Positions 84 to 58,861 of a stretch of 64,000 bases of DNA are shown here, one piece after another. The first letter of the stretch is position 1. Each line of letters opens with the position of its first letter. Below the pieces are notes generated by a model, which ran no database searches, was not told the DNA's origin, and saw only the letters and a program-made list of their open reading frames with translations. The position numbers and the translations under genes are program-made. The stretch lies in IMG/VR virus record IMGVR_UViG_3300002123_000001; one strand, written 5' to 3'. The stretch is from a virus.

Positions 84-130
84 CACTAGCCACAAATATC
101 CTAGCCGATTAGGCATAAAAGCTGTGGAGG
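84..130 (+). promoter_or_regulatory. P1, cassette promoter motif
   Basis: CTAGCC 86-91, CACAAA 91-96, 17-nt spacer, CATAAA 114-119, 4 nt, GTGGAGG 124-130, ATG 137; same layout at 7 other plus-strand sites. Confidence 0.6.
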
Positions 131-648: not shown

Positions 649-701
649 CACTATCCACAAAAACGTGGTGGAATAGGGCATAAAAACAATGAAGAAGGGA
701 C
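649..701 (+). promoter_or_regulatory. P2, cassette promoter motif (long-leader variant)
   Basis: CTATCC 651-656, CACAAA 656-661, N17, CATAAA 679-684, then ATGAAGAAGGGAC variant box; real SD GGAGG 735-739. Confidence 0.55.
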
Positions 702-1172: not shown

Positions 1173-1231
1173 CTACCCCCATTTCAACGCCTGCAAAAGT
1201 GGGGGTAAAGAAGAGATAACAACTGTGGAGG
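1173..1231 (+). promoter_or_regulatory. P7, orphan cassette promoter with no ORF behind it
   Basis: TGCAAA 1192-1197, N17, GATAAC 1215-1220, 4 nt, GTGGAGG 1225-1231; no ATG/GTG at SD distance. Confidence 0.5.
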
Positions 1232-2612: not shown

Positions 2613-2636
2613 AACCACCTCCTTTGCCGCTGTTGT

Positions 2637-2681
2637 TATACCGCAAAGTAGCGAGTACTTGTGGCATAAAAGAAGTGGAGG
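2637..2681 (+). promoter_or_regulatory. P5, cassette promoter motif
   Basis: TATACC 2637-2642, CGCAAA 2642-2647, N17, CATAAA 2665-2670, 4 nt, GTGGAGG 2675-2681. Confidence 0.6.
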
Positions 2682-5760: not shown

Positions 5761-5823
5761 TTGTCACCGTAACGCTGAGCGCTGTAAGCCCGACGTTTTG
5801 CGCAGGGCCGTCGTGGTGGGCGA

Positions 5824-5849
5824 GTCTCGGAGTCAGCCGAGCCTGGTAA
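5824..5849. repeat. 26-nt hairpin element, copy 1
   Basis: GTCTCGGAGTCAGCCGAGCCTGGTAA; stem CTCGG/CCGAG. Confidence 0.85.
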
Positions 5850-5927: not shown

Positions 5928-5973
5928 TGTGCTGTGAAGTGGCGAACAAGAGCGGGCCGGGGATGTGGTTCAA

Positions 5974-5999
5974 GTCTCGGAAACAGCCGGGCCTGGTAA
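5974..5999. repeat. 26-nt hairpin element, copy 3
   Basis: GTCTCGGAAACAGCCGGGCCTGGTAA; 3 nt from the rnhB stop codon. Confidence 0.85.
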
Positions 6000-8236: not shown

Positions 8237-9402
8237 TTCAGGAGAAGCCCCCCTGCCAGCTCCATCAGGTCGGACTTTCGTTCATCGTCTGTCAGCAGGT
8301 CGGCGATCTCCGCCACCGCGTTGCTGGCAAACCATAGGTTGATCACCGGAGCACCGCTGACGTCGTGCTTGATGGGAGGCAACGTGGTGGACCTCTTCCC
8401 CTCGATGACCGCTTCAATACTCAAGATCTCGTCCTGCGTGAGCTTCCCTGCGAAGTAGTTCTGCAGCCGCGGCCAGGAGATGGCTTCCGTCATCGCCTTT
8501 GCGACCACCTCCAAGAAGGTGTTGACCGAAGCCGTGCTCAACGATTCGATCACGGCGTCCTTCACTTGGCCCTTAGCGGCATCGATCATCTTCTCAATGG
8601 TCTCGTTGCTGATGGTGGAGCTCATCTCATCCAGGTCCTTGCGGGCCGCGCCGTTGTGCCGCTTGGACATGATGGGCTTCACCACGCAAAGACTCGTGCC
8701 ACCACCGTTGAGCCGCAGCACGTTCATCTTCACCTGCATCGAGCCAGCCCCGAAGTCGCTGTTGCTGAAGCTGCACCCGAGCGCAATAAACTCCCCAGCC
8801 GCTGGCTCGAACACGTGTGGCAGCGCTGAATGGAACGTGAAGCTCAGGTCAGACCCCGTAGCGGCCACAGGCATCGCCCCGAAGCTGTAGCAAGCTGTGG
8901 CGAACTCCACCAAGAGCGGCGGGGTGGCGAGGTGTATCTTGAACGATGGGCTGACGAACCCGCGCACCTCATCTGATACCGTTCGGTTGATGAAGGACGC
9001 ACGCCTACGGAACGAGCGCTGCTTGAACTGGCTCTTCTTGAAGCGCTCGTTCAGCAAGTACACCAACTCTTGCCACTCCCACGCCTCACTGGATGAGACT
9101 AGGGTGTTCACAAACGAGGCGGGGATACTCACCTCAGACGCCATCTGCCGCAGGGCATGCGCGTGAACCCGAAGGTTAATCTCGGCGCCGTTGATCGTGA
9201 CCTTGTACTTCGGGGTGGCTCCAGCCGCATCCTGCACATCGAAGTGCATGTCGTCGACGATGACGTCGTGGTCCACGATCACCATCGTTCGAACCTTGTC
9301 CCAAACCTCAGCCGCCCTCTGCTGGCTGAACTTGAACCTGTGGCTCAAGGTGTCCTGCGCTTTCCTAGCCGCTTCTGAATCTAGTGCTTTCTGATAATCC
9401 AT
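8233..9402 (-). CDS. DUF932-like protein, 389 aa
   Basis: Central FSNSDFGAGS...RLNGGG...KRHNG resembles the DUF932 signature (NSxDGSxA...R.vCsNG...rH); ATG 9402. Confidence 0.45.
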   Translation of the reverse strand: MDYQKALDSEAARKAQDTLSHRFKFSQQRAAEVWDKVRTMVIVDHDVIVDDMHFDVQDAAGATPKYKVTINGAEINLRVHAHALRQMASEVSIPASFVNTLVSSSEAWEWQELVYLLNERFKKSQFKQRSFRRRASFINRTVSDEVRGFVSPSFKIHLATPPLLVEFATACYSFGAMPVAATGSDLSFTFHSALPHVFEPAAGEFIALGCSFSNSDFGAGSMQVKMNVLRLNGGGTSLCVVKPIMSKRHNGAARKDLDEMSSTISNETIEKMIDAAKGQVKDAVIESLSTASVNTFLEVVAKAMTEAISWPRLQNYFAGKLTQDEILSIEAVIEGKRSTTLPPIKHDVSGAPVINLWFASNAVAEIADLLTDDERKSDLMELAGGLLLK

Positions 9403-9406
9403 ACGC

Positions 9407-9434
9407 AAAAAGGCGGCAAGTTGCCTCGCCGCCT
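9407..9434 (-). terminator. Intrinsic terminator after the sigma gene
   Basis: Minus strand: AGGCGGC-N10-GCCGCCT then TTTT; ends 4 nt before ATG 9402. Confidence 0.65.
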
Positions 9435-9456: not shown

Positions 9457-10221
9457 CTACTTGTACTGCTCGTACTTCTTGATGATGCTGCCCTTCAAGC
9501 GGGACACCTTCGAAGGGCTCAAGCCCAATCGCTGAGCAAGCACCCCAGTGCTGGTGACCGGCATCCCGCCCTGTTGCGGGTACATCAAGTCGTACAGCCG
9601 CTGCTCTTCTGGCCCCAGGCTATGCCGGAGCAACCCAATCACCTCAGACTCGCGCTGCGCCGCGATCGGTACTGGGTCGCTCTCGAAGGGAGTTGATAGA
9701 ACGTCCCTCCGCTGCATCCCCTGAATCTGCTGTATCCTACGCGCCGTGAGCTGCCTTTGCTGCGGCAGCCCAATGTTCATGCGCTGGGCAATCTGCTCGT
9801 GTGAGGGCTCAGCCCCAAGCTCGTCTGACAGCTCCTCTTGTGCAGCCTGAATCTTGCCGATGTAGCCCGCTGGCGTCTCAGCAATGCGCGCCATGTTCTG
9901 ACGCTTCTTGTTCGTGCGGCTCACCCGGCGCAGCTGATTGTGCAAGTGCGTGCTGAACGTGGCCCCACGGTCTGGGTCGTACGTCTTCAACGCGTCGATG
10001 GCCAGATTCATCATGTTCCCACGAAGCCCCACCGCACTGGTCTGCGGCGCCTTGTGGACGTTCTGATGGTGCCTGAACACCGGCTCGAACTGCTGTAGCA
10101 CGGACTTCGTGTTGTCTGGACTTGGGTCCGACTTCCAACGCATCACCAGCTCGTGCTCCGCCTTCGTCCTATCGGCGGCCACCTTCTCCCTCTCTTGGAG
10201 ATATGCGTCGATCGGGTTCAT
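9457..10221 (-). CDS. sigma-70 family RNA polymerase sigma factor, group-3-like, 254 aa
   Basis: Region 2 (YDPDRGATFSTHLHNQLRRVSR), region 3 (LGAEPSHEQIAQRMNI), region 4.2 HTH (STGVLAQRLGLSPSKVSRLKGSIIKKY); ATG 10221. Confidence 0.8.
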   Translation of the reverse strand: MNPIDAYLQEREKVAADRTKAEHELVMRWKSDPSPDNTKSVLQQFEPVFRHHQNVHKAPQTSAVGLRGNMMNLAIDALKTYDPDRGATFSTHLHNQLRRVSRTNKKRQNMARIAETPAGYIGKIQAAQEELSDELGAEPSHEQIAQRMNIGLPQQRQLTARRIQQIQGMQRRDVLSTPFESDPVPIAAQRESEVIGLLRHSLGPEEQRLYDLMYPQQGGMPVTSTGVLAQRLGLSPSKVSRLKGSIIKKYEQYK

Positions 10222-10247: not shown

Positions 10248-10754
10248 TCAGTGCTCGAGGAGGCGCTTGGTCCGGCTCAGGAGTGTCGGTGCTTCCACCG
10301 GTCTCCGGTTGGCGTTCGCCTGCGGCATCGCATGGCTTGCTTCGTAGTCGCCGGTTGCGGCATGGCTTAGCTGCCCTGCCAGCAGCTTGCGGTCCGCCTC
10401 CTGCGACGGCTTCTTGCCGTCGAAGTGCCGGTTCAGGAACTCCTCGCGCCCTCGTCGGAACTCCTCCAGAACGACGTTCGAGTGGTGTACCGCCGTCCCC
10501 GTCGGGTCGCTCGGCTTCATGTCCGGGTCCCCCCACAGTGCGTCGATGTTTCCTGACGCCCTCCCCTCCGGCTTGGGGTACTGGTCCGGGTTGGTTCCCA
10601 CGGTGCTTCGCCCGTTGTCTCCCGGTGCCTCCACCTCGGCTTGCTTCAGGAAGGCGTACAACTTGTCCGCGTCCTCCTGCGGGTCCGTGAGGGGAAGGCA
10701 GTCGCTCATGCTGCGTCCGTTGTATGCCATGCACGTAGCGTACCACGACCCCAC
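10248..10754 (-). CDS. hypothetical protein, 168 aa, directly upstream of sigma
   Basis: ATG ORF with better composition than the overlapping extension of the sigma ORF. Confidence 0.65.
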   Translation of the reverse strand: MGSWYATCMAYNGRSMSDCLPLTDPQEDADKLYAFLKQAEVEAPGDNGRSTVGTNPDQYPKPEGRASGNIDALWGDPDMKPSDPTGTAVHHSNVVLEEFRRGREEFLNRHFDGKKPSQEADRKLLAGQLSHAATGDYEASHAMPQANANRRPVEAPTLLSRTKRLLEH

Positions 10755-11757: not shown

Positions 11758-11775
11758 GGTTTCCCATGGCTCTTA

Positions 11776-14334
11776 TCACGCGGCGCCGTCCCTATTTGCC
11801 CAGTTCTTTGCAAACAGCGGCTTGCCGAACCCTACGGGCTTCATGTCATTTCCAGCTGCCAAGCCAGGGCGACTGAGGCGACGTGCACCCTCCCTCTGCG
11901 ACGTGGAGAGCTGTGCTGCAGGCGACAGCACGTTCGCCTTCTTCTCCTTCAGCTTGTCCCCTGGAGGGCCGCCGTACTTCAGCTGCGGGTCTCTAGCTAT
12001 CGGCAGCGTGGGCGCCTCCCCAGACACTGGCAGCCGCATGGACCGGGGGCTTGGGTAAAGCTGACCGCCCGCAAAGTCTGACGTGGCAAACCCAAGCGCC
12101 AGCTTTTGAACCGACGCTATCTTCGGTGGCTGCAGCATGTTCAACGGACGAATCTTAGGACCGTTGGGGTCCTGCGGCGTACCCACCTTCTGCGCTCGCG
12201 CCAACCGCTTCTCGGGCGTCTCCAAAGAAGAGCCTATCGGCGATGGGGTGGTGGGGATCATGGCCTGCTTCACGCTGTACTTCGGGTTGGGAGGAGACAC
12301 CGAAGCCGCACGCACCTTCTCCTTGCCAATCTGACTCAAGAGATACGGGTTGCTTCCCGCGATCTTAAACATCTCGTCTAGCCACCCAGAGGAGCCCACC
12401 TTGGCGATGTAGTCGTGCAGCTTCATTGCCTTGGGGTCGATCTCCCCAGCAACAGCCGCTTGACGCATGCGCCTATGGTACTCGTTCATCCCCTGGTGCA
12501 GGGCCTCTGCCTCGCTCATGCCACCCCTCACCCGCTGCTGCACCCCGGATGAACCGCGCAACGCCTCAAGAGATTGAGTGGGCAAGTTGGGTGCAGGGAG
12601 ACTGGCCAAAGCTTGCTGCTGGGCACGGCCCACCACGGACGGTGCAGAAGGGGTCTTCACACCAACCGCTGTTCCAGCAAGCTCATGCTTGATGTAGTCG
12701 CCAAGTGGCATCTGTGCGTCAGCGGCACCCATGTGCATCAGCTGATATGCAGCATTCTCATCCATCCCCTTGCCCATCTGTGCGGCGCGCCCCCCCAGAG
12801 CACTGCGCACAGCGGGGTCTAGAGAATCCAGCCCCTTCTTCACATAGTCCGAGCTGCCCTGCGAAATCCTGGTGGCCGCGTACGGGTCTGCTGCCCGCAG
12901 CGCTGGAGCAGCATGGGCTGCTGGAGTGGCCACCTGTTTGGCCACCTGCTGCGCGGCCTGCCCAGCTCCACGCCCACGGCGAAGAAGCGTGGCACCGAGA
13001 GCTCCTGCTCCCACGCCCAGCGCTCCAATGCCGGCTCCAATGCCGGCAAGTGCACCCGCGCTCAACGGCTTGCGAACTGGTTGCGTCTCCGGCTGCCCTT
13101 GCTGAGGTGCCGTGCCTGGGTCGACCGCATCGAACCCGATCTTGAACAACTCATCAGAGAACGCCGCCGCCTTTACAGAGCCCATCGAGGGACCAAGCAA
13201 AGAACCGCCCTCTGCCCACTGCATCGTATCGGGGCTGTACCCGTCGTCCGCCGAAGACTTCTTGGACTTCATCGGGTCTTCGCCGAGCTTCTTCGCCCGC
13301 TGAGCCAGGGCTACAGCCAGCTCCTCTACAGAAGGAGTCGTCGCTGCCTTCTTCTCAGCACCCGCCTCCATATTCTTCAGGCGCGTGTAGTAGTCATCCA
13401 GCTCCACCAGATGATCCCTCACGATCTCCTTCACCTTCTCAGGGTCCTTGGTGTGCTCTTGCTCCACCTTCTTGCCCATCGCCACTTGCTTCTTGTCGAA
13501 GCCAGCGTCGGTCATGCCGTCCGCTTTGCCCCCCACCAACTGCTCGGCAGAAAGCTTGGGCAGCATCATCAAGTCGCTGAACTCATCGAAGAATGCCGAG
13601 GCAACTACCTCCTTGGCCAGCCCGCTCGCCTGATCCTTCAGTTGCTTCGCCGGGGCAACTCCCCGATGGCGGATGCCGTGAATGATCTCTCCGGTAGCCC
13701 CCAACCCATACCCGGCGGCTGCTCCAGCCAACGGGTTTATACCCAGAGCGTTGGCAGTACCAGCGCCAAGAACGGCGCCAGCTGCAGGACCCAACTCCGC
13801 CTTCATCGCCTCCAGCGTGGCGGGGCTGATTGAGAAAGCCTGCTTTCGAAGAGTGTCGTTGGCGTTGTCGGGGATCATCCCCGGGGTCTTCTCCAGCGGA
13901 CTCGCCGCCTGGTTGCCTCGGTGCCGAATAGCATGAACCACCTCGGGAATGGCACCAACCCCATACCCCGCGGCAGCACCAGCCAAGGGGTTGATGCGCA
14001 GCGCCGCACCAAGGCCAGCCCCCAGCACAGCACCAGAGGCTGGGCCCAGCTCAGCTAGAGCCGCTTCTCTGAACTTCTTCCTGGCGTCCATGGACACGAG
14101 CTCAGCCAACTTGGGGCTGTCCAGCCCGCCAGGGTTTGCCTTGGACTCGTACGACTTCTTTGGCTCGTCGTACTTCTCCTTGGCCTCCCGCTTACCCTGC
14201 GCAGTACCGTAGCTCTTCGGAGACTTACCCTGGGCGTGCGACTGCTGCGTTGCGACGGCAAAAGCCTGCGACTTCGGCATCGAGGGGCTCTTCGCCAGAA
14301 GATGTTCGGCCCTGTTATGAATCCACGCCGGCAT
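11776..14334 (-). CDS. large glycine-zipper virion protein with DUF5661-like segment, 852 aa
   Basis: ATG 14334 one nt after upstream stop; duplicated NPLAGAAAGYG(V/L)GA units; GKADG..FD..Q...G..VE.EHT.DP...EIV.DHL.E...YY..L..ME. Confidence 0.7.
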   Translation of the reverse strand: MPAWIHNRAEHLLAKSPSMPKSQAFAVATQQSHAQGKSPKSYGTAQGKREAKEKYDEPKKSYESKANPGGLDSPKLAELVSMDARKKFREAALAELGPASGAVLGAGLGAALRINPLAGAAAGYGVGAIPEVVHAIRHRGNQAASPLEKTPGMIPDNANDTLRKQAFSISPATLEAMKAELGPAAGAVLGAGTANALGINPLAGAAAGYGLGATGEIIHGIRHRGVAPAKQLKDQASGLAKEVVASAFFDEFSDLMMLPKLSAEQLVGGKADGMTDAGFDKKQVAMGKKVEQEHTKDPEKVKEIVRDHLVELDDYYTRLKNMEAGAEKKAATTPSVEELAVALAQRAKKLGEDPMKSKKSSADDGYSPDTMQWAEGGSLLGPSMGSVKAAAFSDELFKIGFDAVDPGTAPQQGQPETQPVRKPLSAGALAGIGAGIGALGVGAGALGATLLRRGRGAGQAAQQVAKQVATPAAHAAPALRAADPYAATRISQGSSDYVKKGLDSLDPAVRSALGGRAAQMGKGMDENAAYQLMHMGAADAQMPLGDYIKHELAGTAVGVKTPSAPSVVGRAQQQALASLPAPNLPTQSLEALRGSSGVQQRVRGGMSEAEALHQGMNEYHRRMRQAAVAGEIDPKAMKLHDYIAKVGSSGWLDEMFKIAGSNPYLLSQIGKEKVRAASVSPPNPKYSVKQAMIPTTPSPIGSSLETPEKRLARAQKVGTPQDPNGPKIRPLNMLQPPKIASVQKLALGFATSDFAGGQLYPSPRSMRLPVSGEAPTLPIARDPQLKYGGPPGDKLKEKKANVLSPAAQLSTSQREGARRLSRPGLAAGNDMKPVGFGKPLFAKNWANRDGAA

Positions 14335-24788: not shown

Positions 24789-24809
24789 GGACCTACTCTA
24801 CCACGCCCC

Positions 24810-24856
24810 CACTATCCGAAAACGTTGAATGTTTTCGGGCATAAAAGCTGTGGAGG
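24810..24856 (+). promoter_or_regulatory. P3, cassette promoter motif
   Basis: CTATCC 24812-24817, CGAAAA 24817-24822, N17, CATAAA 24840-24845, 4 nt, GTGGAGG 24850-24856. Confidence 0.6.
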
Positions 24857-24865
24857 AACAACAGA

Positions 24866-24973
24866 ATGGAACTGATCTTCGCAGTGGAGACCGCTGTAAA
24901 GCTGGTCGCGTTTGCCCTTCACCTCGCCGCGGACGCGCGGGAGAAGAAGCCCGCCGCCAAGGCGGGCGCATAG
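24866..24973 (+). CDS. 35-aa hydrophobic peptide (MELIFAVETAVKLVAFALHLAADAREKKPAAKAGA)
   Basis: Below the ORF-track cutoff; ATG 9 nt after GGAGG; own promoter and hairpins. Confidence 0.5.
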   Translation: MELIFAVETAVKLVAFALHLAADAREKKPAAKAGA

Positions 24974-24987: not shown

Positions 24988-25034
24988 CTATCCCTGCAAA
25001 ACCGAGTAGATACGCGGCATAAGAGCTATGGAAG
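24988..25034 (+). promoter_or_regulatory. P4, cassette promoter motif (long-leader variant)
   Basis: CTATCC 24988-24993, TGCAAA 24995-25000, N17, CATAAG 25018-25023, 4 nt, ATGGAAG 25028-25034. Confidence 0.55.
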
Positions 25035-25074: not shown

Positions 25075-25398
25075 ATGCAGGCACAGCAAGCACTCGAGAC
25101 GGTGGCAGCGCAGAACGCCGGCGTCACCCCCAACAGCGTCACCCGCGCCCCCGAGGCGCCCCCGGCAGCCCCGGGGATGGTGAACCTCGCTCCGCCCACC
25201 GGGATCGCCGCGGGCGAGTCCTACGGGCTCGGACTCGGACTCGGCGAGGGGTTGGGGCGGTCGTTCAAGCCGAGTTCGTTCGGCGAGAACTACAAGACCG
25301 GCCTGAGCAGCGGACTCGGAATGGCCACGGCCGCCATCGCTGGCGGAGTCCTGTGGGTCGGGGGGAAGGCCGTCATCGGCTACTTCTTCGGCGACTAG
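25075..25398 (+). CDS. small glycine-zipper membrane protein, 107 aa
   Basis: AAGGAG 25060-25065; C-terminal GLSSGLGMATAAIAGGVLWVGGKAVIGYFFG. Confidence 0.65.
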   Translation: MQAQQALETVAAQNAGVTPNSVTRAPEAPPAAPGMVNLAPPTGIAAGESYGLGLGLGEGLGRSFKPSSFGENYKTGLSSGLGMATAAIAGGVLWVGGKAVIGYFFGD

Positions 25399-25851: not shown

Positions 25852-25908
25852 TGAAAACCTCACGTTGAACAGGGGATAAAACCTCTGGAGGGAGACGCGC
25901 CGTCTCCC
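25852..25908 (+). promoter_or_regulatory. P8, cassette promoter motif plus 5' leader hairpin
   Basis: TGAAAA 25852-25857, N17, GATAAA 25875-25880, 4 nt, CTGGAGG 25885-25891; GGGAGACG-CGC-CGTCTCCC 25890-25908. Confidence 0.55.
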
Positions 25909-25927: not shown

Positions 25928-26650
25928 GTGCGTGCATGGTACGTGACGATGGACGTCGCATCCCCGGGGATGCGGCTGAAGGAGGACGACTCGGGCGCCT
26001 GGACCATCGGTCCTGGCGTTCCAGTCGTAGGGCATGAGCACGTGCTCGAGCAGCTTCGGGAGTACCGAAGTACGCTCGAGCAGAGGGCTGCCGACTCCGT
26101 TGGCTTCATCCCCTCTCTGGATGTGAGGACCACGTCGGGGCACATTGACCCGACTCGTTGGATCTCCCCGCAGCAAGCGACCCGCATGCTGCGGGACGTC
26201 AAGATGAGAGGATGGCCGATAGGGGACGTACACCTGGACAGGAGCGACGAGGGGCGCCTGTGGGTACCGGTACACCCCATGCGGGGAAGGGACACAGGCG
26301 AGTGCCTACTCCACGTGGCCCCGGTGGCTGCAGACCCCGAATCGGTGCAGTTCTACTGCCCCGATGGTGTCTCGAAGGAGGTGCCAGACTCGAAGAATGG
26401 CGGGGTCAAAGTCATCAGGGAGTTCGACCCCGGGTTCGGGGCGGGTTGCACCGTCCTGAGCGCAACCAGCACGGCCTTCGGGCCGGAGCTGCTGGTGAAG
26501 ATGTCCCGGGGCGCCAGCTTCAGGATAACGAGGGGGTTCGACGAAACGAATCCCGAAGACCCGGTCGAGACGGTGGTGATCTGGACGGGAGGAGCCATCA
26601 AGCTCCAGCCATCCAAACGGGGTCTACCCCGCGCCTCAGCCGCCGCCTGA
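25928..26650 (+). CDS. hypothetical protein, 240 aa
   Basis: GTG 25928 six nt after AGGAGG. Confidence 0.7.
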   Translation: MRAWYVTMDVASPGMRLKEDDSGAWTIGPGVPVVGHEHVLEQLREYRSTLEQRAADSVGFIPSLDVRTTSGHIDPTRWISPQQATRMLRDVKMRGWPIGDVHLDRSDEGRLWVPVHPMRGRDTGECLLHVAPVAADPESVQFYCPDGVSKEVPDSKNGGVKVIREFDPGFGAGCTVLSATSTAFGPELLVKMSRGASFRITRGFDETNPEDPVETVVIWTGGAIKLQPSKRGLPRASAAA

Positions 26651-36379: not shown

Positions 36380-36690
36380 TGAATCTCCTTGCTGCTCCAC
36401 AAGCAAGTAGAGCCGCAGCTGACTTGGTCGATGATACAGAACGGCACCGACAGCAGTGAGGCGCTGATGTTCATGATCATGAGAGTTGGTTGGCTGCCCG
36501 GGGTGCGACCATTCTCTGGAAGCACTGCCTTCAGAGCCTGCAAGCTCATGTCAGGGAAGGTGTATACCGCCCCGGTGTGCGTTCGTATCTCCACAGTACC
36601 CAGGTCATCCAGCGGGTCCTTCGTCAGCCCTGGATGTCCAAATCCGATGGGGAACTCACTACTGGGTTTCGAAGAAGTAGTCATCGACAA
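36376..36690 (-). CDS. hypothetical protein, 104 aa
   Basis: ATG ORF. Confidence 0.6.
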   Translation of the reverse strand: MSMTTSSKPSSEFPIGFGHPGLTKDPLDDLGTVEIRTHTGAVYTFPDMSLQALKAVLPENGRTPGSQPTLMIMNISASLLSVPFCIIDQVSCGSTCLWSSKEIQ

Positions 36691-37042
36691 GCGTCCATCC
36701 TAGCCGCATCCCGCGGTCGTTGGTGACCATGACACTGGTGGGGTTACTGGCTTTAGAAGCCAGCAGTGTGTCGACGTCAGCACGAGCTATTGGCCGGGTG
36801 ATGAGCTCGATCGCGTCGCTCAACGAAGGAGGCCAACTGTCTGGGAAGCGAACGCCGGGAGGGAGCGGGGCGTTCATCTCCTGCCAACGGATGGCTAAAA
36901 AATGGCGCGTGATGCCATTCTTCGTTTCTATCATCGAGAGGTACGCTGCCAGTTCCCTGGCGTGGTTGGGTTTTCCCTCTACCCCAACGCGCGCCAGGGC
37001 TACTAGGGCCTCATACTCTTCTTGGGTCAGAGTGATGTCCAT
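36659..37042 (-). CDS. hypothetical protein, 127 aa
   Basis: ATG 37042 after the kinase stop. Confidence 0.6.
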   Translation of the reverse strand: MDITLTQEEYEALVALARVGVEGKPNHARELAAYLSMIETKNGITRHFLAIRWQEMNAPLPPGVRFPDSWPPSLSDAIELITRPIARADVDTLLASKASNPTSVMVTNDRGMRLGWTLVDDYFFETQ

Positions 37043-37059
37043 ACCGGCAGCGTACCACA

Positions 37060-38004
37060 CTACTTATTGCGCATGAACGGAGGAACGTACTCCAACTCCG
37101 GGTTGTACGGGCGAATCTTCCCAGCCCTGACGTCTTCCTCGCGCTTCTTCAGCAGGTCAGCTGGGAGCTTCACCCCCAACGCTGGGAAGTCCAGCATCAT
37201 GAGACGGGTCTTGTTCTGCAGGTCAGGAACATCCTTGGACTTGCCCTCGATGACGTAGTCGAAGGCGGAGTCAGGGACATCCACCAGGTCGTTCTCCGAC
37301 TGATGCTCAGAGCCTACGGAGATCTCCGGCACTGGCCTCTTGATCCTGACGATGTAGCCGCCCCCATCCTGCACGTAGTTCATCTCTGTCTTGAAGCGCA
37401 GGTCGTTGATGACCACGTTGACCTTCGGCCGCATCATGCTGTCCTGCACCACGTGGCTGGACACCGTTGATGAGAACTGCAGCCCACGCTTCTGGTCGTA
37501 GTGACAACCGCCTTCCTGCAGGCAAGCTGCTACGCGCATCAAGTACGCTGCCCACACGTTCTCATAACAGGCTCTAGCCCATTCCGTACCCAGTGTTTGA
37601 AGGGCGTAGCGCGGGGTAAGGTACTCGACGAATACTCTCTCGTACTCCGCCGCGATGGACGCCTCAATCTCTTCTTTGGTGGGATAACGACTCTCCACCG
37701 CGGCGTTAAGATAGGCGAGGCAACGTCCATCCTCGTAAGCCATGCCGTCTTCTACGCCGTGCGGCGCCCTCCGACGACGGATGTAGCGCTTATCGGGATC
37801 GTTACGGTACTTCGACTCACCCCACACCTGGTCGTCGCTGAAGTTGAACACGTCCTGCACGAAGCGCTTCATCGGATCGGCGAACCCGATCTTCACGAAG
37901 CTGAAATGCTCCAGCAGAACGTTCGCCACGGTGTCCTTACCGGCACCGGCGCTGCACTTGTTGCCTTGCGGGTCGTAGCAGAGACCGCTGAGTGCGATGA
38001 TCAT
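37060..38004 (-). CDS. deoxynucleoside monophosphate kinase (T4 gp1-like), 314 aa
   Basis: GAGKDT P-loop, TPRYALQTLGTEWAR, VINDLRFKTE, IVRIKRP, SEHQSEN - same order as T4 dNMP kinase. Confidence 0.7.
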   Translation of the reverse strand: MIIALSGLCYDPQGNKCSAGAGKDTVANVLLEHFSFVKIGFADPMKRFVQDVFNFSDDQVWGESKYRNDPDKRYIRRRRAPHGVEDGMAYEDGRCLAYLNAAVESRYPTKEEIEASIAAEYERVFVEYLTPRYALQTLGTEWARACYENVWAAYLMRVAACLQEGGCHYDQKRGLQFSSTVSSHVVQDSMMRPKVNVVINDLRFKTEMNYVQDGGGYIVRIKRPVPEISVGSEHQSENDLVDVPDSAFDYVIEGKSKDVPDLQNKTRLMMLDFPALGVKLPADLLKKREEDVRAGKIRPYNPELEYVPPFMRNK

Positions 38005-38417
38005 GAAACCTCCTCGCAGAAAACGTCGATGCCCATATCCTGTAGGGTTTGAAGACTGTCCCTTATCCGGTACTCACGGGCGTAGTAGAGGCGTTCTACC
38101 CCACCCAAGTTGATGAGGCGCTTGGCGCACATCGGGCAGGGAATATCGGTGACGAACACCACCTTCGGCACATACCTCGGCGTCGAGCAGTTGATGATGG
38201 CGTTCTCTTCAGCGTGCAGGTCCCCGCAGTCACCTGGTGTTGTTCGGTCACACCGGTTTGGAAGACCAGCGGCGTTGCCGTTGTAGCCGACTCCATAGAC
38301 GTACCGGTAGTCGTTACTAGTGATGACGCACCCAACCTGAAGTCGGGAGCACGTGCTTCGCTCAGCCAGCATGAAGGCCAAGCGCATGTAGATGCTTTGA
38401 AAGGTGGGTCTGCTCAC
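38001..38417 (-). CDS. dCMP deaminase, 138 aa
   Basis: HAEENAI and PCPMCAKRLI zinc-binding motifs; ATGA overlap with kinase. Confidence 0.88.
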   Translation of the reverse strand: MSRPTFQSIYMRLAFMLAERSTCSRLQVGCVITSNDYRYVYGVGYNGNAAGLPNRCDRTTPGDCGDLHAEENAIINCSTPRYVPKVVFVTDIPCPMCAKRLINLGGVERLYYAREYRIRDSLQTLQDMGIDVFCEEVS

Positions 38418-38929
38418 TGGTTTGGCTCCCCCATGTCATACAGGCGGTGAGACAAGATCATCTTTGTGGTTTCGGCAACGGTGCCACCAAACATCCCGGT
38501 TTGATGGAACGAGAGCAAGCGCTGAAATGCCAGTGGTTCAAGCGTGACCGTCACCGTCCACTCCAAGTCCTTGGGTTCTGCAGTAGGAAGGGCGCCGACC
38601 TTATCTAGATCTGTGAACACCGCGTCCAACTCACGAAGGTACCGAGCGTCGTGTGGCTTCAGCTCCAACTTATTGGAGAACCGATGGTGGTGATGGTACG
38701 GAGATTCATGAGTCGTGTTGAAGGCCGCTCCTATCTCTGTGTACCCCAGGGCTGTGCGCTCTCTGGCGTAGTACATGATGAGGGACCTGGACAACAGCAC
38801 GAGACGCTGACGCGCGTTAGAAAAGGCATCCTCTACGCGCATATGCAGGTGGTTACACACCACCATGGCGATCGGCATCAGCATCTCCCGGTAGTGCGCC
38901 TGCCGCTCTTCTGCTAGCTTACTGGGCAT
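38414..38929 (-). CDS. DnaA domain-IV-like DNA-binding protein, 171 aa
   Basis: RQRLVLLSRSLIMYYARERTALGYTEIGAAFNTTHESPYHHHHRF resembles the DnaA C-terminal HTH. Confidence 0.45.
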   Translation of the reverse strand: MPSKLAEERQAHYREMLMPIAMVVCNHLHMRVEDAFSNARQRLVLLSRSLIMYYARERTALGYTEIGAAFNTTHESPYHHHHRFSNKLELKPHDARYLRELDAVFTDLDKVGALPTAEPKDLEWTVTVTLEPLAFQRLLSFHQTGMFGGTVAETTKMILSHRLYDMGEPNQ

Positions 38930-41481: not shown

Positions 41482-41534
41482 CACAGTTTCCCACCGGAAC
41501 CCGGCATAAGAGAATCGAGGGAAGAATAAGGAGG
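41482..41534 (+). promoter_or_regulatory. P6, weaker cassette promoter motif plus SD
   Basis: CACAGT 41482-41487, N17, CATAAG 41505-41510; AAGGAGG 41528-41534. Confidence 0.45.
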
Positions 41535-41538
41535 CTCT

Positions 41539-41790
41539 GTGGATCCCAACGAACTACTTCTTCGGCTGCTCACCAACTGCAAGGCCATGCGGGTCACGCT
41601 CGATAGAACGGACGACCCGGTGGCCGAGTTCGAAAGGCAGATGGAAAACGGCATCGTGGAGGACGTCGACCAGATTGTGGAAGACGTGCTCAACCTTACA
41701 ACTTGGCTTTCCAACGGCGGCTTCGCCCCCGACTGGGCAGCCCACCATGACACCCTGCCACCAGCTGCGGAGAGAGACGATGTCTACTAG
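41539..41790 (+). CDS. hypothetical acidic protein, 83 aa
   Basis: GTG start 4 nt after AAGGAGG. Confidence 0.65.
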   Translation: MDPNELLLRLLTNCKAMRVTLDRTDDPVAEFERQMENGIVEDVDQIVEDVLNLTTWLSNGGFAPDWAAHHDTLPPAAERDDVY

Positions 41791-44436: not shown

Positions 44437-44882
44437 CAAGCACCTCCCTTTGGTGGCGCAGACGTCGTTGTAGAAGAGGTCCTTCTGTACCCCGCGGCGT
44501 GCGCAGCGGTTCGTGCATGCTCACGAATCACTGAGTCCAAAGTGCTCTCCACTTTGCTCACCGCCTGCGTGTTCCTGGACAGCGCCTCCACTTGGTCTTC
44601 GCCCGTATCCTTCAACGCATCAAGCGAAGACTTCACCTGCTGGAACGTCTCGGTCATCTTCTCAACCAAGCGCCGCGTACTGTCCTCACGGGCTTCTACC
44701 CGCTCGTTCAGTTTCTGCAGGTCCGTAACGCGCTTGTCCTGGACCTTCAGCAGCTGCTGGACCAGTAGATAGAGCGCGGCTATGGCCACGACAAGTAGCG
44801 CCCCGAAGGCGCTATCCCGCACGATCACGTAAACAGCAGTCTCGGTGACCGACTTCACGTCCGAGACCGCTGCCAGCGTCAT
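44436..44882 (-). CDS. membrane coiled-coil protein, 148 aa
   Basis: ATG 44882 in ATGA overlap; SAFGALLVVAIAALYLLV helix then coiled coil. Confidence 0.6.
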   Translation of the reverse strand: MTLAAVSDVKSVTETAVYVIVRDSAFGALLVVAIAALYLLVQQLLKVQDKRVTDLQKLNERVEAREDSTRRLVEKMTETFQQVKSSLDALKDTGEDQVEALSRNTQAVSKVESTLDSVIREHARTAAHAAGYRRTSSTTTSAPPKGGA

Positions 44883-45268
44883 CCGTAGGCCCAAACCCAA
44901 AGGGATACGTTGGACGCGTGCGAGAACGTGAGCGCCGTGATGCCAACCGCAGGACGTGGGCTTCCCAAGGCGAGGAACCCACCCTGGGATATCTCGATGT
45001 CGTCCGTTCCACCGTTGGTTTGGACCTGAATCGGCAGCGCAGAAAGGCTGCTGTCCGGGTCGACCTGCACCACCACCAGCTTGGCGCCTTCAGCAGGCAG
45101 GTTGGAGAGGTCCACGGCATCCGTGCCCACCCCCGTCTTCTCGAATCGCTGTATGGTCTTCCGCGTGTACTGCGATGTGAAGTTGACGGGGATGGGGCAC
45201 TCAGGCTGCCCCGTGTAGGGCGGCGTCTGGAAGGTGCCGGAGAACTGAACGGTGAATAGAAGGGCCAT
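44879..45268 (-). CDS. small beta-rich tail protein, 129 aa
   Basis: Follows tube-like gene. Confidence 0.6.
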   Translation of the reverse strand: MALLFTVQFSGTFQTPPYTGQPECPIPVNFTSQYTRKTIQRFEKTGVGTDAVDLSNLPAEGAKLVVVQVDPDSSLSALPIQVQTNGGTDDIEISQGGFLALGSPRPAVGITALTFSHASNVSLWVWAYG

Positions 45269-45271
45269 TCA

Positions 45272-46030
45272 TTACCCCGGTAGGTTGGCGCCACGAACCG
45301 CGCGAGTGGAGTGAGCTGGAGCTTCTGGGATGCCCAAGAACGCGCTGCTCTGGTTGGCCCCACCGGCATTGGCGGAGTTGGAACTGATCAGGGTCAGCTG
45401 GCTGATGGACACCGGCACCATCCGCTCGAACTGCACGCTGACGTTCTCCTGCAGGAGCACGCCCTGTGCGTCCGTCGCCATGGCGTGGTTCGGCAGGTAG
45501 CACGCTTCGAAGTACCCGGCGCCGAGAGCATCGAGGTTGATGTCCCGGATGTACATCAAGAGCCCTATGGGCTGCGCGAAGAGGTCGGACGCCAGGTTGT
45601 AGAAGATGTTCTCGTACCCCGGCGGGATGATCACGTCGTGCTGGTTCACCATGTTCTGCGGTGACGAGCCGAGGTTCGGCCACATCGGAGCGACGATGGT
45701 GGGGCTGATCGTGTCGTTGTAGTAGGCGTACAGGATGCGCAGCAAGCTCGCACCGTGGTAGTAGACCCGCCCCAGGCTGAGCTGCCCCACAGTACGACCC
45801 GAGATGAAGTAGCTGCGCTCCGAGCCCAGCTCGAAGATGCGGCTGAACTGCCGGGTGTGCGTCACGTTGAAGTTCTGCAGCACCCCGATGGGGAGCACGA
45901 TCTGATTCGCGTTCTCACCCGTGCCGCTCAGCGCCTGCCCGAAGAAGGTGGCACCGCCGATGTTCGCGATGCGCGGAGGACCCGCGGCAATCATCAAGAA
46001 GCCGGCGTTGACGTACTGCCCGTCCACCAT
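45272..46030 (-). CDS. putative tail tube protein, 252 aa
   Basis: First structural gene after the sheath; beta-rich; assignment by synteny only. Confidence 0.45.
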   Translation of the reverse strand: MVDGQYVNAGFLMIAAGPPRIANIGGATFFGQALSGTGENANQIVLPIGVLQNFNVTHTRQFSRIFELGSERSYFISGRTVGQLSLGRVYYHGASLLRILYAYYNDTISPTIVAPMWPNLGSSPQNMVNQHDVIIPPGYENIFYNLASDLFAQPIGLLMYIRDINLDALGAGYFEACYLPNHAMATDAQGVLLQENVSVQFERMVPVSISQLTLISSNSANAGGANQSSAFLGIPEAPAHSTRAVRGANLPG

Positions 46031-46803
46031 CCCCGACTGAACGTAGTTGGTGTACGGTGCCCAGTCACTGAAGTTGCCGCTAATGTTCCTTACCTCCGGC
46101 TAGACGCCCTTCGGAGCGTCCGTCTCACTGTAATGAGGCTAACGTGAAACTGCGCGGCGAGGTCGGGGTGAGACAACCCGCCTAGCTGATACAGTTCCTT
46201 CATCCTCTGCTTCTCTGAGGGCAGCAGAAACACTTTACCGGTAGTAGCAGCTCTACCCTTACCGGCCATGTCGGCCATGTTGTCCGCATGCGTGCCCAGA
46301 AATAAGTGGTCCACTCTTACACACTTGCGGTTGTCACAGGTGTGAAGTACGAACAAGTTGTCCGGCACCAAGCCGTTGATCAACTCGTAGGAGAACACGT
46401 GCGCTCTGACGGTCTTGCCCAGCACCTTGAGAATACCGTATCCCTCATCGTGCAGAGCTCCAGTCCATTCCCAACAACCATCGCTGGACCCTGGGATGTA
46501 TACCTTCTCCCAAAAGCGACACAGGGGTTTACCACACGTGAAGAACTTACCGTGCCGCAGCTGATTAGCGCGTACTAGCTTCGTCTCCCCGCATTGGCAC
46601 GTGCAGTTCCAATAGATGGTGCCGAACTTATCGTTCGGCGCGCGTGAGACCGCCGTAAGAAGACCAAAGGTCTCCCCCGTAATGTCTCGCGTCGTTCCAT
46701 CCTCGTTACGCACTTACCGGTATCCTTCTACCTTGTAGTCTACCAGATGCCCGGGCATCCTCAGTCCCAGAGGCAGCTGGGCCTGGCGAGTATTGTGAAA
46801 TCA
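46031..46803 (-). mobile_element. Free-standing homing-endonuclease insertion between sheath and tube genes
   Basis: HNH gene with its own flanking non-coding DNA and palindrome GATGCCCGGGCATC upstream. Confidence 0.4.
46090..46713 (-). CDS. HNH homing endonuclease with C-terminal HTH, 207 aa
   Basis: CWEWTG...GYG...AHVFSYEL...VLHTCDNRKCVRVDHLFLGTHADN; GTG start. Confidence 0.8.
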   Translation of the reverse strand: MRNEDGTTRDITGETFGLLTAVSRAPNDKFGTIYWNCTCQCGETKLVRANQLRHGKFFTCGKPLCRFWEKVYIPGSSDGCWEWTGALHDEGYGILKVLGKTVRAHVFSYELINGLVPDNLFVLHTCDNRKCVRVDHLFLGTHADNMADMAGKGRAATTGKVFLLPSEKQRMKELYQLGGLSHPDLAAQFHVSLITVRRTLRRASSRR

Positions 46804-47049
46804 TTAGAAACCGCCCCAGTCCACTGCGTCAGGCGACATCTTTCCACCGCCAATCGCCGGGTGTGCCATGCCACCCAAACTCTTGGGCTGGATCAGCTTC
46901 TTTGCCGCTGAAGCCGCCGGCTTGCCCGCCCTCTCCGACCGCACGAGCGTGTCGGCCACGCCATGAAGGCGGGCCAACACCTCGGGTGGAAGGCCGGCGG
47001 CCTTCATCATCTCGTCACGCATCGCGAACATCATTGCGCTAGTGATCAT
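46804..47049 (-). CDS. small protein with N-terminal FAMRDEMMKAAG motif, 81 aa
   Basis: ATG 47049 after AGGAG. Confidence 0.55.
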   Translation of the reverse strand: MITSAMMFAMRDEMMKAAGLPPEVLARLHGVADTLVRSERAGKPAASAAKKLIQPKSLGGMAHPAIGGGKMSPDAVDWGGF

Positions 47050-47095
47050 GGCGGCTCCTGGCATCGATAGCGAGTCAACTCACTGCGCATCACAC

Positions 47096-48187
47096 TCATA
47101 CAAGTAAAGTCAACTTGACGTAGTTGCATGGAATCGGGACATCCAGCGTGGTGTCGATGAGCACCGTGTCCCGGTTGTTCTCGTCCTGGATGATGTTGTC
47201 GAGGTTGCCACCGATGAGCACGCCGTGCTCCACGAGGAATCCGAACATGCCCTGCACCGTGGTGCCGAGCGAGTCCAAGAACCCCTGGGTGATGTTGAAC
47301 CGGCCGATGAAGTTTCGAATCCCCTTGCGGAGGAACTTCGCCGTGAAGTCCACCACCTTCGTCACCGAGTCCGTGCGGGTCTCGATGCTGGTCTGGTCCG
47401 TGGTCACCGCCATGCGGGCGAAGATGGGGGTCCCGGTGCCTTCCTGGATGAAGATCCAAGTCCCGCCACCTGCCATGATGTCCAGCTGAGCTTCGCTGAA
47501 CGAGTCGTTCGAGCCGACCACCCCAGTGAACCCCGCGACCGGGAAGTTCGTGAACGACTGCTGCGGAGGCTGCTGCCCGATGCAGCCAACCACCGCCGCG
47601 TTCATGTAGTAGCCGTCGATCAGCTGCTCGAGACCTTCGATGCTGGCTCGGCACTTGTCGGGGAAGGTCATCCAGAACCGGCGGTTCGAGTACCCCTGTC
47701 CCATCTTGTTCATGGTCTCGGCGATGGCCTGCTTGTCGCGCGTGCCATCCACCGTCACCAGCTCACGGCCGCGGATGCGGATCGAGAACAACTCGCCCAC
47801 CAGCGGCAGAGGAAGTACATCCTCGGCGTAGAAGTCGTCGTCGTTCTCGCCGCTTAGGAACTCCGCTGGGGTGATGCGGACCGTGATCTGCTGACCACTC
47901 ACCGACTTGATGGAGTAACGCTTGTCGTCCGCCGACACGTCGAGGAACAACCCAGAGCTGACGGCAATCACCGGCTGCATCGGGTCGATTCCCGCGTTCT
48001 GCAACAGCGCCGCCAGGTTCCCGACCCCGGTGTTGAATGTGAACGTGTTGGTGGCTTCACCAACCGAACCGCTCGCTACCAGGGTGTCGATGTCCCGGGT
48101 GGGAACCGACGGGTTCCACATGACGATGCGCTCACCGCGCTGCGTCGGCTCGGACATGAAGTTGACGTGGGTGTTGAACACCTGCAC
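47096..48187 (-). CDS. tail sheath protein, C-terminal part (continues 48132..50900 after a +1 frame change; GTG 48187 only if independent)
   Basis: ERIVMWNP..., RRFWMTFPD, AGFTGVVG, and C-terminus NNRDTVLIDTTLDVPIPCNYVKLTLLV follow the conserved sheath layout. Confidence 0.65.
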   Translation of the reverse strand: MQVFNTHVNFMSEPTQRGERIVMWNPSVPTRDIDTLVASGSVGEATNTFTFNTGVGNLAALLQNAGIDPMQPVIAVSSGLFLDVSADDKRYSIKSVSGQQITVRITPAEFLSGENDDDFYAEDVLPLPLVGELFSIRIRGRELVTVDGTRDKQAIAETMNKMGQGYSNRRFWMTFPDKCRASIEGLEQLIDGYYMNAAVVGCIGQQPPQQSFTNFPVAGFTGVVGSNDSFSEAQLDIMAGGGTWIFIQEGTGTPIFARMAVTTDQTSIETRTDSVTKVVDFTAKFLRKGIRNFIGRFNITQGFLDSLGTTVQGMFGFLVEHGVLIGGNLDNIIQDENNRDTVLIDTTLDVPIPCNYVKLTLLV

Positions 48188-50900: not shown

Positions 50901-50928
50901 TGACGCGCTCCTGTTGAAACCGCGGTTA

Positions 50929-51852: not shown

Positions 51853-52168
51853 TGGCCGCCTCCTGCTCTCGCGCAGCCCAGTTCTCCCGAGCCTTACCCA
51901 GCATGTGCTCCTGCAGCCCAGAGGCCGCCAGCCCAGCAATCCCTCCAGCGATGGGCACCCCGTAGTTCAACCAGGCGGGACTGCTGGCTCTGCCCTTCAA
52001 CGCGTAGCGGTTCAAGGCTTCCATCCCGGCGTACCCAAGCCCAGACCCAATCGCCATGCCAGCCACGCCCTTCACGTAGGGCATGATGGGATGCTCAGCG
52101 CGCGGAGGAACTTCTCCCTCCGCGATCTTCAACATCTCATCGGCAAAGCTTCGAAATGAAGGCGTCAT
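51833..52168 (-). CDS. small glycine-zipper protein, 111 aa
   Basis: N-terminal SFADEMLKIAEG; GVAGMAIGSGLGYAG and IAGGIAGLAASG. Confidence 0.65.
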   Translation of the reverse strand: MTPSFRSFADEMLKIAEGEVPPRAEHPIMPYVKGVAGMAIGSGLGYAGMEALNRYALKGRASSPAWLNYGVPIAGGIAGLAASGLQEHMLGKARENWAAREQEAANVGEGT

Positions 52169-54011: not shown

Positions 54012-54082
54012 GGAAGACTGCTGCTGTACGAGCTGGGCTACTGCCTGCTCGCCACCCGCTACTCCTGAGACGGCGGCGAGCT

Positions 54083-57572: not shown

Positions 57573-57647
57573 CGTGGATACATCCTACCGCAGATACACG
57601 AAAAGGGCACCAGCCACCCAGGGCCGGCGCCCTCTTCGGGCCGACGA

Positions 57648-57673
57648 GTCTCGGAGACAGCCGAGCCTGGTAA
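57648..57673. repeat. 26-nt hairpin element, copy 4
   Basis: GTCTCGGAGACAGCCGAGCCTGGTAA, 15 nt after the capsid gene stop. Confidence 0.85.
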
Positions 57674-58810: not shown

Positions 58811-58861
58811 GTCGTTCTCCTCTTCTCGTCGTCGTCAGTTGATTGTACCGCCTCGAACGGA

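Follow-up and report, generated by a model that had tools for sequence, protein, structure and literature searches.

The sigma factors SPO1 gp28 and gp33/34, T4 gp55 and phiEco32 gp36 are encoded by phages and redirect the RNA polymerase core of the host. The virion polymerase of phage N4 is a single-subunit, T7-like enzyme, which recognises DNA hairpins and needs no sigma factor. In the PeSL cassettes of T4-type phages, small ORFans are bracketed by a hairpin and a conserved promoter, and this arrangement is repeated many times. According to two reviews, phages that encode a multisubunit polymerase are without sigma homologs, and phages that encode a sigma homolog are without a polymerase and borrow the host core (PMC7824862, 2021; PMC13282480, June 2026). 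Here we describe a sigma-70-family gene in a stretch of 64,000 nucleotides (nt) of viral DNA (IMG/VR record IMGVR_UViG_3300002123_000001; hereafter called the window), together with two promoter classes and a polymerase gene of the same phage. Judged by their gene content, this genome and those of Salmonella phage Arash and Vibrio phage D69 have both a sigma homolog and a polymerase, which contradicts the dichotomy of the reviews. In the reading that we favour, with a probability of roughly 55%, the unusual promoters upstream of small plus-strand genes, which we call class I, are read by the phage sigma, with the phage beta-beta' enzyme as its most likely partner.

The product of the sigma gene, with a length of 254 amino acids (aa), is a genuine, highly divergent sigma-70-family factor with the domains sigma2, sigma3 and sigma4. 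As a single sequence it matches the Pfam family Sigma70_r3 (PF04539) at aa 121-158 with 33.7 bits (gathering score 25.3), while r2 (13.2 bits) and r4 (12.2 bits) stay below threshold. Using a profile of 78 family sequences, we found that residues 54-246 align with regions 2-4 of solved SigA structures (E = 7e-20). SigA (75 bits) is followed by WhiG, Staphylococcus aureus SigB, SigF and FliA (42.7 bits), and the alignments to WhiG and S. aureus SigB cover nearly the whole open reading frame (ORF). An AlphaFold model built on the family alignment, with a mean predicted local distance difference test score (pLDDT) of 91.5, consists of three helical domains, with disorder in the linker at aa 171-185. 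In Foldseek it is closest to the models of Bacillus subtilis SigB and SigD and to holoenzyme structures with SigA, each time with a probability of 1.0. Neither the sequence nor the model contains region 1.1 or the non-conserved insert. A preliminary description, made from the DNA letters alone, had placed the ORF, which reads on the minus strand, at 9457-10221; these coordinates are exact. It had ascribed to the ORF regions 2, 3 and 4.2 but no region 1; the Pfam r3 match, the profile and the model bear this out. We infer from these matches that the ORF encodes a functional initiation factor.

In sigma2, the family conserves the motif YDPxxG..L.TH.xN..R..QN, and T91 is invariant. In a hand alignment, H92 and N95 fall at positions which we take to be those of Y430 and W433 of E. 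coli sigma70. The recognition helix of sigma4, SPSKVSRLK, is kept within the clade of the window and has diverged in Arash and D69, with a 4-aa insertion. Directly after the gene stands an intrinsic terminator with a 9-bp G+C-rich stem, a GCAA loop and a U5 tract. Its fold energy is -26.3 kcal/mol (z = -3.6; none of 200 shuffles folds as well), and a simple terminator scan did not pick it up. In a relative with a 76% identical sigma (L216), a terminator occupies the same place with a different stem sequence and a T5 tract. The clean terminator that had been proposed is hence supported by the 9-bp stem, the z score and the structure kept in this relative. As a side observation at 9402-9411, the 389-aa gene downstream of sigma starts 4 nt after the U-tract of the terminator and without a Shine-Dalgarno (SD) sequence, while its copy in L216 has GGAGG; its expression may depend on read-through or on some unseen promoter.

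An exhaustive phmmer search showed how large the sigma family is, with 1291 representative clusters at E <= 1e-3, 506 at E <= 1e-10 and 32 at E <= 1e-30. A search with the hidden Markov models of the sigma-70 subfamilies reached no curated cut-off. The best, though weak, NCBIfam match of the ORF was FliA_WhiG (TIGR02479; 30.5 bits, cut-off 189.6), with lower scores for SigBFG (TIGR02980; 23.7 bits, cut-off 234.35) and for the extracytoplasmic function (ECF) model (TIGR02937; 23.7 bits, cut-off 42.9); unlike ECF factors, the protein has sigma3. Across the 78 family members, the SigBFG, FliA_WhiG, ECF and RpoD models were matched about equally often and always weakly, FliA_WhiG by 56 members (best E = 1.6e-11) and SigBFG by 59. 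Since all subfamily models match equally weakly, the family forms a separate phage sigma clade, and we place the protein in this large and uncharacterised clade. Its architecture is that of group 3, because sigma2, sigma3 and sigma4 are present and region 1.1 is not, but it is no FliA/SigF member, because no subfamily cut-off was reached. Accordingly, of the FliA/SigD/SigF type assigned in the preliminary description, the three-domain group-3 architecture stands and the family membership (30.5 against 189.6 bits; 23.7 against 234.35 bits) does not.

Among isolated phages, homologs of the sigma were found only in Salmonella phage Arash and the Vibrio phages D69, D181 and D148 (tblastn E = 4e-15 for Arash and 3e-10 for D69; identity of 23-30% depending on the method). 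The sigma2 motifs are kept from the window through Arash and D69, and the position of the gene inside a block of virion genes is kept across these very distant phages. A search of 185,579 reference genomes of bacteria and archaea found no relative and gave no clue to a prophage or host. These observations bear on the idea that the protein acts on the host, either as a decoy for a host anti-sigma factor or by imitating an alternative sigma of the host and thereby reprogramming host genes. According to a preprint, some phage sigma homologs act in this way, for example in host dormancy (bioRxiv 10.1101/2021.11.12.468384), and the weak best match to FliA/WhiG would fit. We nevertheless regard it as highly improbable, given the distance of the family from every cellular subfamily, the lack of relatives in the reference genomes, the synteny kept among virion genes and the co-occurrence with a phage polymerase.

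The window belongs to a metagenomic contig of about 191 kb, of which several independent assemblies exist (191,046 to 191,157 bp), and is 100% identical over most of its length to Logan contig SRR3990168_10907, at 83,946-147,945. About 12 kb beyond the right end of the window and about 66 kb from the sigma gene, this contig encodes P0396, a single-chain beta-beta' RNA polymerase fusion of 2636 aa interrupted by a LAGLIDADG intein. Its domains are Rpb2_3, Rpb2_6 (181 bits), Rpb1_1, Rpb1_2 and Rpb1_5, in addition to the LAGLIDADG domain. The gene was reached by walking along a strain of about 97% identity (L298) and then by cluster membership. In that strain we read the catalytic GADFDGD motif, and its intein-free homologue P0276 (2151 aa) aligns with bacterial beta over residues 57-999 and with beta' over residues ~1127-2117, including a stretch that matches E. 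coli beta' 184-516. P0276 is 33% identical to Arash gp206, a beta-beta'N fusion, and 22% to Arash gp216, which is beta'C. Kin of the polymerase form more than 120 clusters at a minimum of 51% identity, on contigs of up to 200 kb, and more distant full-length beta-beta' fusions are common in IMG/VR among the matches listed. Queries with Arash gp206 and gp216 gave no match within the window or on sigma-bearing IMG/VR contigs, and the polymerase search with these two proteins found none among the top 120 database matches; nor, in 80 relatives, did the polymerase turn up at a distance of up to 10 kb from the capsid gene. The polymerase gene is followed by a VgrG/baseplate-like gene, a 210-aa gene and a 712-aa gene, and then by the terminase region.

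The sigma family, a related beta-beta' enzyme and a related capsid occur in exactly the same four of four isolated phages (Arash, D69, D181 and D148). Since a bacterial-type RNA polymerase is encoded by the phage itself, it is probably this enzyme, and not only that of the host, which the sigma guides to promoters, and the host core is probably not the partner of the sigma. The self-contained module of a sigma factor and its regulon, as suggested in the preliminary description, is not borne out, since a beta-beta' polymerase is encoded on the same contig. An alternative would be that the sigma redirects the host core alone and that the beta-beta' enzyme uses another factor or none, like the enzymes of phiKZ and AR9. 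The reviews assign phage sigma homologs to the host core and describe phage multisubunit polymerases without sigma homologs (PMC7824862, PMC13282480), and the distance between the two genes points in the same direction. We consider this arrangement unlikely, as sigma and polymerase go together in all four isolates and here, the same GGTACGCTA promoter stands before the polymerase gene and before the neighbour of the sigma gene, and the alignment of the phage enzyme with bacterial beta/beta' extends from end to end, including, at the level of the stretch only, the clamp-helix stretch of E. coli. Moreover, both proteins were present in preparations of Arash particles.

The best candidate target of the sigma is, as we infer, the class-I or cassette promoter, with the consensus tGCAAA-N14-GGCATAA-aAGctGT-GGAGG, that is with N7 between GGCATAA and GGAGG. 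GGSATAARANNNNYGRRGR has 7 matches in the window with 0.20 expected, and AAAA-N14-GGSATAA has 7 with 0.27 expected. No shuffle gave more than 1 match to either, and each match of either pattern directly precedes a plus-strand gene and lies on the same strand as this gene. We count 8 class-I copies in the window and 13 in the ~104 kb (window and flanks) of the 191-kb genome that the promoter counts cover, and all strong ones are on the plus strand, ahead of plus-strand genes. Distinctive features are the invariant GG at -14/-13, the ATAA core of the -10 element, a purine and never T at -7, and a conserved start region. Several copies have an extra CACTATCC element further upstream, and the promoter is usually preceded by the hairpin of the preceding cassette. 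The genes behind class I in the window are small ORFans, except for one small HNH endonuclease; outside the window, a class-I promoter also precedes a 596-aa protein with a nucleoside deoxyribosyltransferase domain. Hairpins at the 5' ends of class-I transcripts (690, 25029 and 25886) were no better than those of shuffles (z -0.3 to -1.6). Exact scans for GGCATAAAAGNNGTGGAGG gave 3 chance matches in IMG/VR and at least 118 chance matches, mostly coding, in the metagenome collection.

The cassette promoter is therefore real, as had been proposed, and forms a non-canonical, strand-biased class with 7 matches against 0.20-0.27 expected. It was also said to be far closer to a sigma-28 promoter than to a sigma-70 one, with which our scores disagree: over the 12 copies that were scored (the thirteenth was found later), the average match is 7.1 of 12 positions for TAAA-N14-16-GCCGATAA and 6.75 of 12 for TTGACA-N16-18-TATAAT. 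Within the sigma-28-type -10 octamer, only ATAA matches class I consistently. No canonical sigma-70 promoter (at least 9 of 12 positions) was found in the intergenic regions of 82.6 kb (window and its flanks L213 and L214). Class I and sigma-28 promoters both have a -35 element of the short xAAA form, and in both a G+C-rich extension precedes ATAA; the sigma ORF has the same domain architecture as FliA/sigma-28 (sigma2-sigma3-sigma4, no region 1.1); the spacer has 14 nt in class I and 15 nt in sigma-28 promoters (TAAA-N15-GCCGATAA).

The confinement of class I to one strand was claimed as well. It holds for the 13 copies counted, all of which are on the plus strand, but not for weaker variants and not in close relatives. 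Two such variants lie on the minus strand of the window, at 11798..11760 and ~2661..2624. In addition, a minus-strand GGTATAA (2642..2636) faces an 80-aa gene, back-to-back with the class-I promoter at 2644, and the same divergent layout is present in the relatives L014 and L216. In these two relatives both strands carry the class-I motif, which also stands immediately before the sigma gene (L216 1739, L014 9966). The variant at 11798..11760, also given as CAAA-N15-GTGATAAGAGCC, is kept in L216 at position 154, and the relatives L011 and L013-L016 have similar motifs at its position; a stop codon and an SD sequence could explain part of this match. Beside these promoters we noted a perfect 7-bp inverted repeat (CGAAAAC-N7-GTTTTCG) at 24823-24843, inside a class-I spacer, which could be an operator. 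It sits in a 77-nt divergent region which is shared with the class-II promoter of the 1242-aa gene described below. The 35-codon ORF at 24866-24973, with a full-strength class-I promoter and a downstream hairpin, may encode a micro-protein, or its transcript may function as a small RNA.

The core of class I is kept in distant relatives. Relatives with 55% polymerase identity retain GCAAG-N14-G(G/C)GATAAGA-N4-TGAAGG in an otherwise diverged intergenic region. In Arash (L018), about 18 copies of GGTATAAG.A..GTGTAaAC, with the core GGyATAAr..GTGkA, lie on the strand opposite to the structural and sigma genes. They mostly have G at -7 and no conserved -35 element, and the transfer RNA genes of Arash carry canonical TTGACA-N17 promoters. 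Similar motifs are GTTATAAG..GGAG in D69 (L215) and GGTATAAT in L011. This amounts to a coarse co-variation, where sigma2/sigma3 and the -10 core are common to the clade of the window and to Arash/D69, and the sigma4 helix and the -35 element both differ.

A second promoter class (class II) was found upstream of large minus-strand genes. Its consensus is GGTAsnnTA(GA), with near-leaderless geometry, and includes a TAnnnT hexamer of canonical type, with A-11 and T-7. The upstream regions of the polymerase gene and of the gene directly preceding sigma share GGTACGCTA, which at the latter lies at 10744..10730, 6 nt from the ATGGCATAC start and without an SD sequence. This gene, of 153 or 160 aa (10248-10730), adjoins sigma in relatives too (32% identity in L014), begins like the polymerase gene with ATGGCATAC, and may be a partner or regulator of sigma. 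Another class-II element precedes a 1242-aa gene, which heads a minus-strand block of ~15 kb ending at the sigma terminator. At the polymerase gene, a 102-nt divergent region holds a class-I promoter toward small opposite-strand genes and GGGGTACGCTAGAgcgagcgcATGGCATAC on the polymerase strand. In relatives with 55% polymerase identity, GTACGCTAGA on the polymerase strand is a conserved island in the diverged intergenic region, and relatives whose capsid proteins are 77-86% identical have kept GTACAcTAGA ahead of the capsid gene. TGGTA is tenfold enriched upstream of minus-strand genes (7 observed, 0.68 expected), a pattern that was chosen after viewing the data. A Gibbs search of the minus-strand upstream regions did not beat its controls (7.1-7.8 bits against 6.7-7.5 for shuffles), so that the case for class II is made by the TGGTA enrichment and the conservation in relatives, of which the conservation is the stronger evidence. 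A TAnnnT hexamer with leaderless spacing is the look of housekeeping-sigma promoters in Actinobacteria-like hosts. Class II thus looks host-type. The coordinates of all features are collected in Table 1.

Table 1. Positions of the sigma gene, its domains and terminator, the polymerase gene and the promoters of both classes (window numbering unless indicated).
Feature	Position	Strand	Details
Sigma-70-family gene	10221..9457	minus	ATG start, 254 aa and stop, GGAG 5 nt upstream
Sigma2 domain	9892..10221	minus	~aa 1-110, including a region-1.2-like N-terminal helix
Sigma3 domain	9712..9879	minus	~aa 115-170; model helices 115-135, 141-148, 160-169
Sigma4 domain with helix-turn-helix	9460..9666	minus	~aa 186-254, after a low-confidence 3.2-like linker (aa 171-185)
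Intrinsic terminator	9433..9407	minus	GGCGGCGAG-GCAA-CUUGCCGCC-UUUUU, directly after sigma gene
P0396 polymerase gene	Logan 160,384-168,294; L316 10001-17911; ~76,439-84,349 in window numbering	same as sigma	
Class-I promoter	93..130	plus	for 156-aa gene (137-607); 30.9 bits
Class-I promoter	658..695	plus	for 127-aa gene (746-1129)
Class-I promoter, weaker -10 (GAGATAA)	1194..1231	plus	24.1 bits; no clear ORF downstream
Class-I promoter	2644..2681	plus	for 63-aa gene (2689-2880)
Class-I promoter	24819..24856	plus	for 35-aa ORF (24866-24973)
Class-I promoter	24997..25034	plus	for 107-aa gene (25075-25398)
Class-I promoter (GGGATAA)	25854..25891	plus	for 240-aa gene (25928-26650)
Class-I -10/start region, without conserved -35	41484..41521	plus	upstream of small HNH gene (41539-41790)
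Class-I-like variant	11760..11798	minus	CAAA-N15-GTGATAAGAGCCATGGGA; heads four-gene unit ending with sigma; overlaps stop codon of 852-aa gene
Class-II element	10737..10744	minus	GGTACGCT; 6 nt upstream of ATG 10730 of gene preceding sigma; without SD
Class-II element	24795..24802	minus	GGTAGAGT; 6 nt upstream of ATG of 1242-aa gene; without SD
Class-II element	58842..58849	minus	GGTACAAT; upstream of major capsid gene (57689-58810)
Further class-II-like elements	~46740-46750, ~57590-57600		upstream of minus-strand genes

Under our favoured reading, the sigma would bind the phage polymerase, and possibly the host core too, and direct the enzyme to promoters of the form tGCAAA-N14-GGCATAA-N7-GGAGG. 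GCAAA would be read by sigma4, and the GG at -14/-13 together with the yATAA -10 element by sigma3 and sigma2, and transcription would start at the conserved G(G/T)A, about 7 nt further downstream. Class I would thereby drive the hairpin-bounded small ORFans along with some genes of nucleotide metabolism, whose strand is opposite to that of the structural, sigma and polymerase genes. The host-like class II would drive the polymerase gene, the gene next to sigma, the capsid gene and other large minus-strand genes. As class II is common to all of these, sigma and polymerase would be made together with the virion proteins. From here two routes are conceivable. The pair may be packaged and injected and may start the next infection, in an N4- or phiKZ-like manner, which is consistent with the Arash proteomics and the co-regulation with structural genes. 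Alternatively, the host polymerase may make the pair first, which then switches on class I in a T7-like manner. The specific version, in which a packaged sigma and single-chain beta-beta' polymerase transcribe class-I early genes and the host holoenzyme reads class II later, we put forward tentatively, as a possibility below even odds.

Several points weigh against our reading. The assignment of class I to the sigma was reached by elimination and analogy, and class II could equally be its target. With ~104 of 191 kb seen, a second sigma or another specificity factor may be encoded elsewhere. In L216 and L014, the sigma gene is directly preceded by class-I motifs, and in the window a variant stands at the head of the sigma operon. 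In SPO1 and T4, the sigma gene normally stands behind a promoter class which is read by a pre-existing enzyme, and by this precedent class I would be read by the host. A class-I promoter ahead of sigma fits packaging or autoregulation, and it fits an exchange of the two roles as well. In Arash and L011, the class-I -10 element is TGGTATAA(G/T), which is near an extended -10 for host sigma-70. Some class-I matches in relatives overlap a stop codon and an SD sequence and may in part be coincidental. Regarding packaging, both sigma (gp10, 100% coverage) and the polymerase subunits of Arash were detected in virion preparations by mass spectrometry. The same list also holds ribonucleotide reductase, a kinase and a pyrophosphatase, for which reason contamination is possible; it was raised by the authors themselves (PMC10585845).

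Part of these points would be met if the two roles were exchanged, so that the host holoenzyme reads class I early, by which the cassettes and the sigma operon are expressed, and the phage sigma, with the phage polymerase or the host core, then reads the class-II promoters of the polymerase, capsid and other structural genes. Besides the class-I motifs at the sigma genes and the near extended -10 in Arash and L011, the tenfold enrichment of TGGTA upstream of minus-strand genes and the GTACnCTAGA kept upstream of the capsid and polymerase genes of relatives would be accounted for, and SPO1 gp28 and T4 gp55 likewise serve middle or late genes. We find this exchange doubtful, since class II is the one promoter class on the strand of the polymerase gene, which would then need a phage enzyme that already exists. 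Furthermore, class II has the host-type look of a canonical A-11/T-7 with leaderless spacing, whereas class I is without T-7 in all copies. At the positions of Y430 and W433, the sigma does not have the aromatic residues of sigma-70 either (hand alignment), and the Gibbs search on the minus-strand upstream regions did not beat shuffles.

No nucleotide match of the window to any isolated phage was found. Isolated relatives of the sigma, of the major capsid protein (57689-58810) and of one structural protein are limited to Arash, D69, D181 and D148, with 23-32% identity. At least 250 IMG/VR contigs, many with a length of 185-195 kb, encode a capsid protein with 70-86% identity, which indicates an abundant environmental clade. 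The neighbouring proteins of 852, 1025, 677 and 1242 aa had no informative Pfam or PHROG matches beyond DUF5661, and the 677-aa protein weakly matches the Arash structural protein gp6. At 47097-50900, the Logan assembly has one 1267-aa ORF, whereas the window has two overlapping ORFs (48132-50900 and 47096-48313); the two sequences differ by one indel and two mismatches within 44,585-54,235, corresponding to a frameshift, an assembly difference or strain variation. A 1222-aa gene between terminase and capsid (62832-64000, on to ~66,500) contains an intein (Hint and LAGLIDADG homing endonuclease), which is the second in the genome besides that of the polymerase.

A 26-nt element, CCAGGCTCGGCTGNCTCCGAGACTCG, occurs three times on the minus strand (5821-5846, 5971-5996 and 57645-57670; 0 expected), and one copy closely follows the capsid gene. 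The element, which is able to fold into a CTCGG/CCGAG hairpin, may be a terminator or processing site. A nucleotide-metabolism cluster (~36,600-38,900 and, left of the window, L214 2386-4176) comprises a dCMP deaminase, a dNMP-kinase-like protein, a DnaA_C-like helix-turn-helix protein and a deoxyribosyltransferase-domain protein, and hints at modified DNA bases. Late-looking motifs were also seen in the isolates, namely ctAAAATATAg upstream of D69 tail genes (L215 20243-20298, 34762-34942 and 41127-41230) and TTAAACTA upstream of the Arash tail genes gp228 and gp229. The annotation of D69 also lists an Srd-like anti-sigma factor.

If sigma and polymerase are indeed packaged as a pair, they would represent a third type of phage transcription, beside sigma factors that hijack the host core and multisubunit polymerases without sigma. 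This type would be widespread in an abundant clade of environmental phages of 185-200 kb. A single-chain beta-beta' enzyme is the smallest arrangement of a bacterial-type core that one may hope to reconstitute. Should the sigma work with it, the two proteins would form a compact, orthogonal transcription system and give a new view on transplanting sigma-dependent initiation between cores. Two sharply defined promoter classes, conserved in diverged relatives, are available in the window as test material, and Arash (host Salmonella) and D69 (host Vibrio) can serve as culturable models.

The closest described phages are Arash and D69. As here, their sigma gene (gp10 and VPHD69_0011, annotated as sigma factor or hypothetical protein) lies inside a main-strand structural-gene block, and their genomes, of 180-187 kb, also encode a related capsid and a bacterial-type beta/beta' polymerase. 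The Arash polymerase is split into a beta-beta'N fusion and beta'C and lies between portal and capsid, whereas the window phage has an undivided, intein-containing chain encoded upstream of the terminase. In Arash and D69 the recognition helix of sigma4 differs from that of the window, and Arash promoters are without a conserved -35 element. As is proposed for the window sigma, the sigma-family proteins of SPO1, T4 and phiEco32 give a phage-specific promoter class a reader of its own. These phages encode no polymerase core, whereas the window phage does, and T4 gp55 is without the full set of the three DNA-reading domains that the window sigma keeps.

The class-I cassettes and the PeSL cassettes are alike in the repeated arrangement of a hairpin and a highly conserved promoter around small ORFans, but PeSL promoters are near the consensus of host sigma-70 and class-I promoters are not. 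N4 offers a possible logic, in which a packaged polymerase reads unusual early promoters and the host holoenzyme reads late ones with a sigma-70-like -10 and a poor -35; in N4 the polymerase is packaged, and in the window phage packaging is hypothetical. Like the window phage, phiKZ and AR9 have a beta/beta'-type core of their own and a dedicated promoter-specificity protein (gp68, gp226; PMC7598289, PMC13282480), and the virion-packaged early-gene enzyme of the phiKZ type is a possible parallel. Their enzymes are divided among four to five polypeptides, which are very divergent, and in sequence the specificity subunits do not resemble sigma-70. In the window phage, by contrast, the core is one chain readily found by Pfam (Rpb2_6, 181 bits), and its putative partner is a sigma-70 homolog that is recognisable by sequence.

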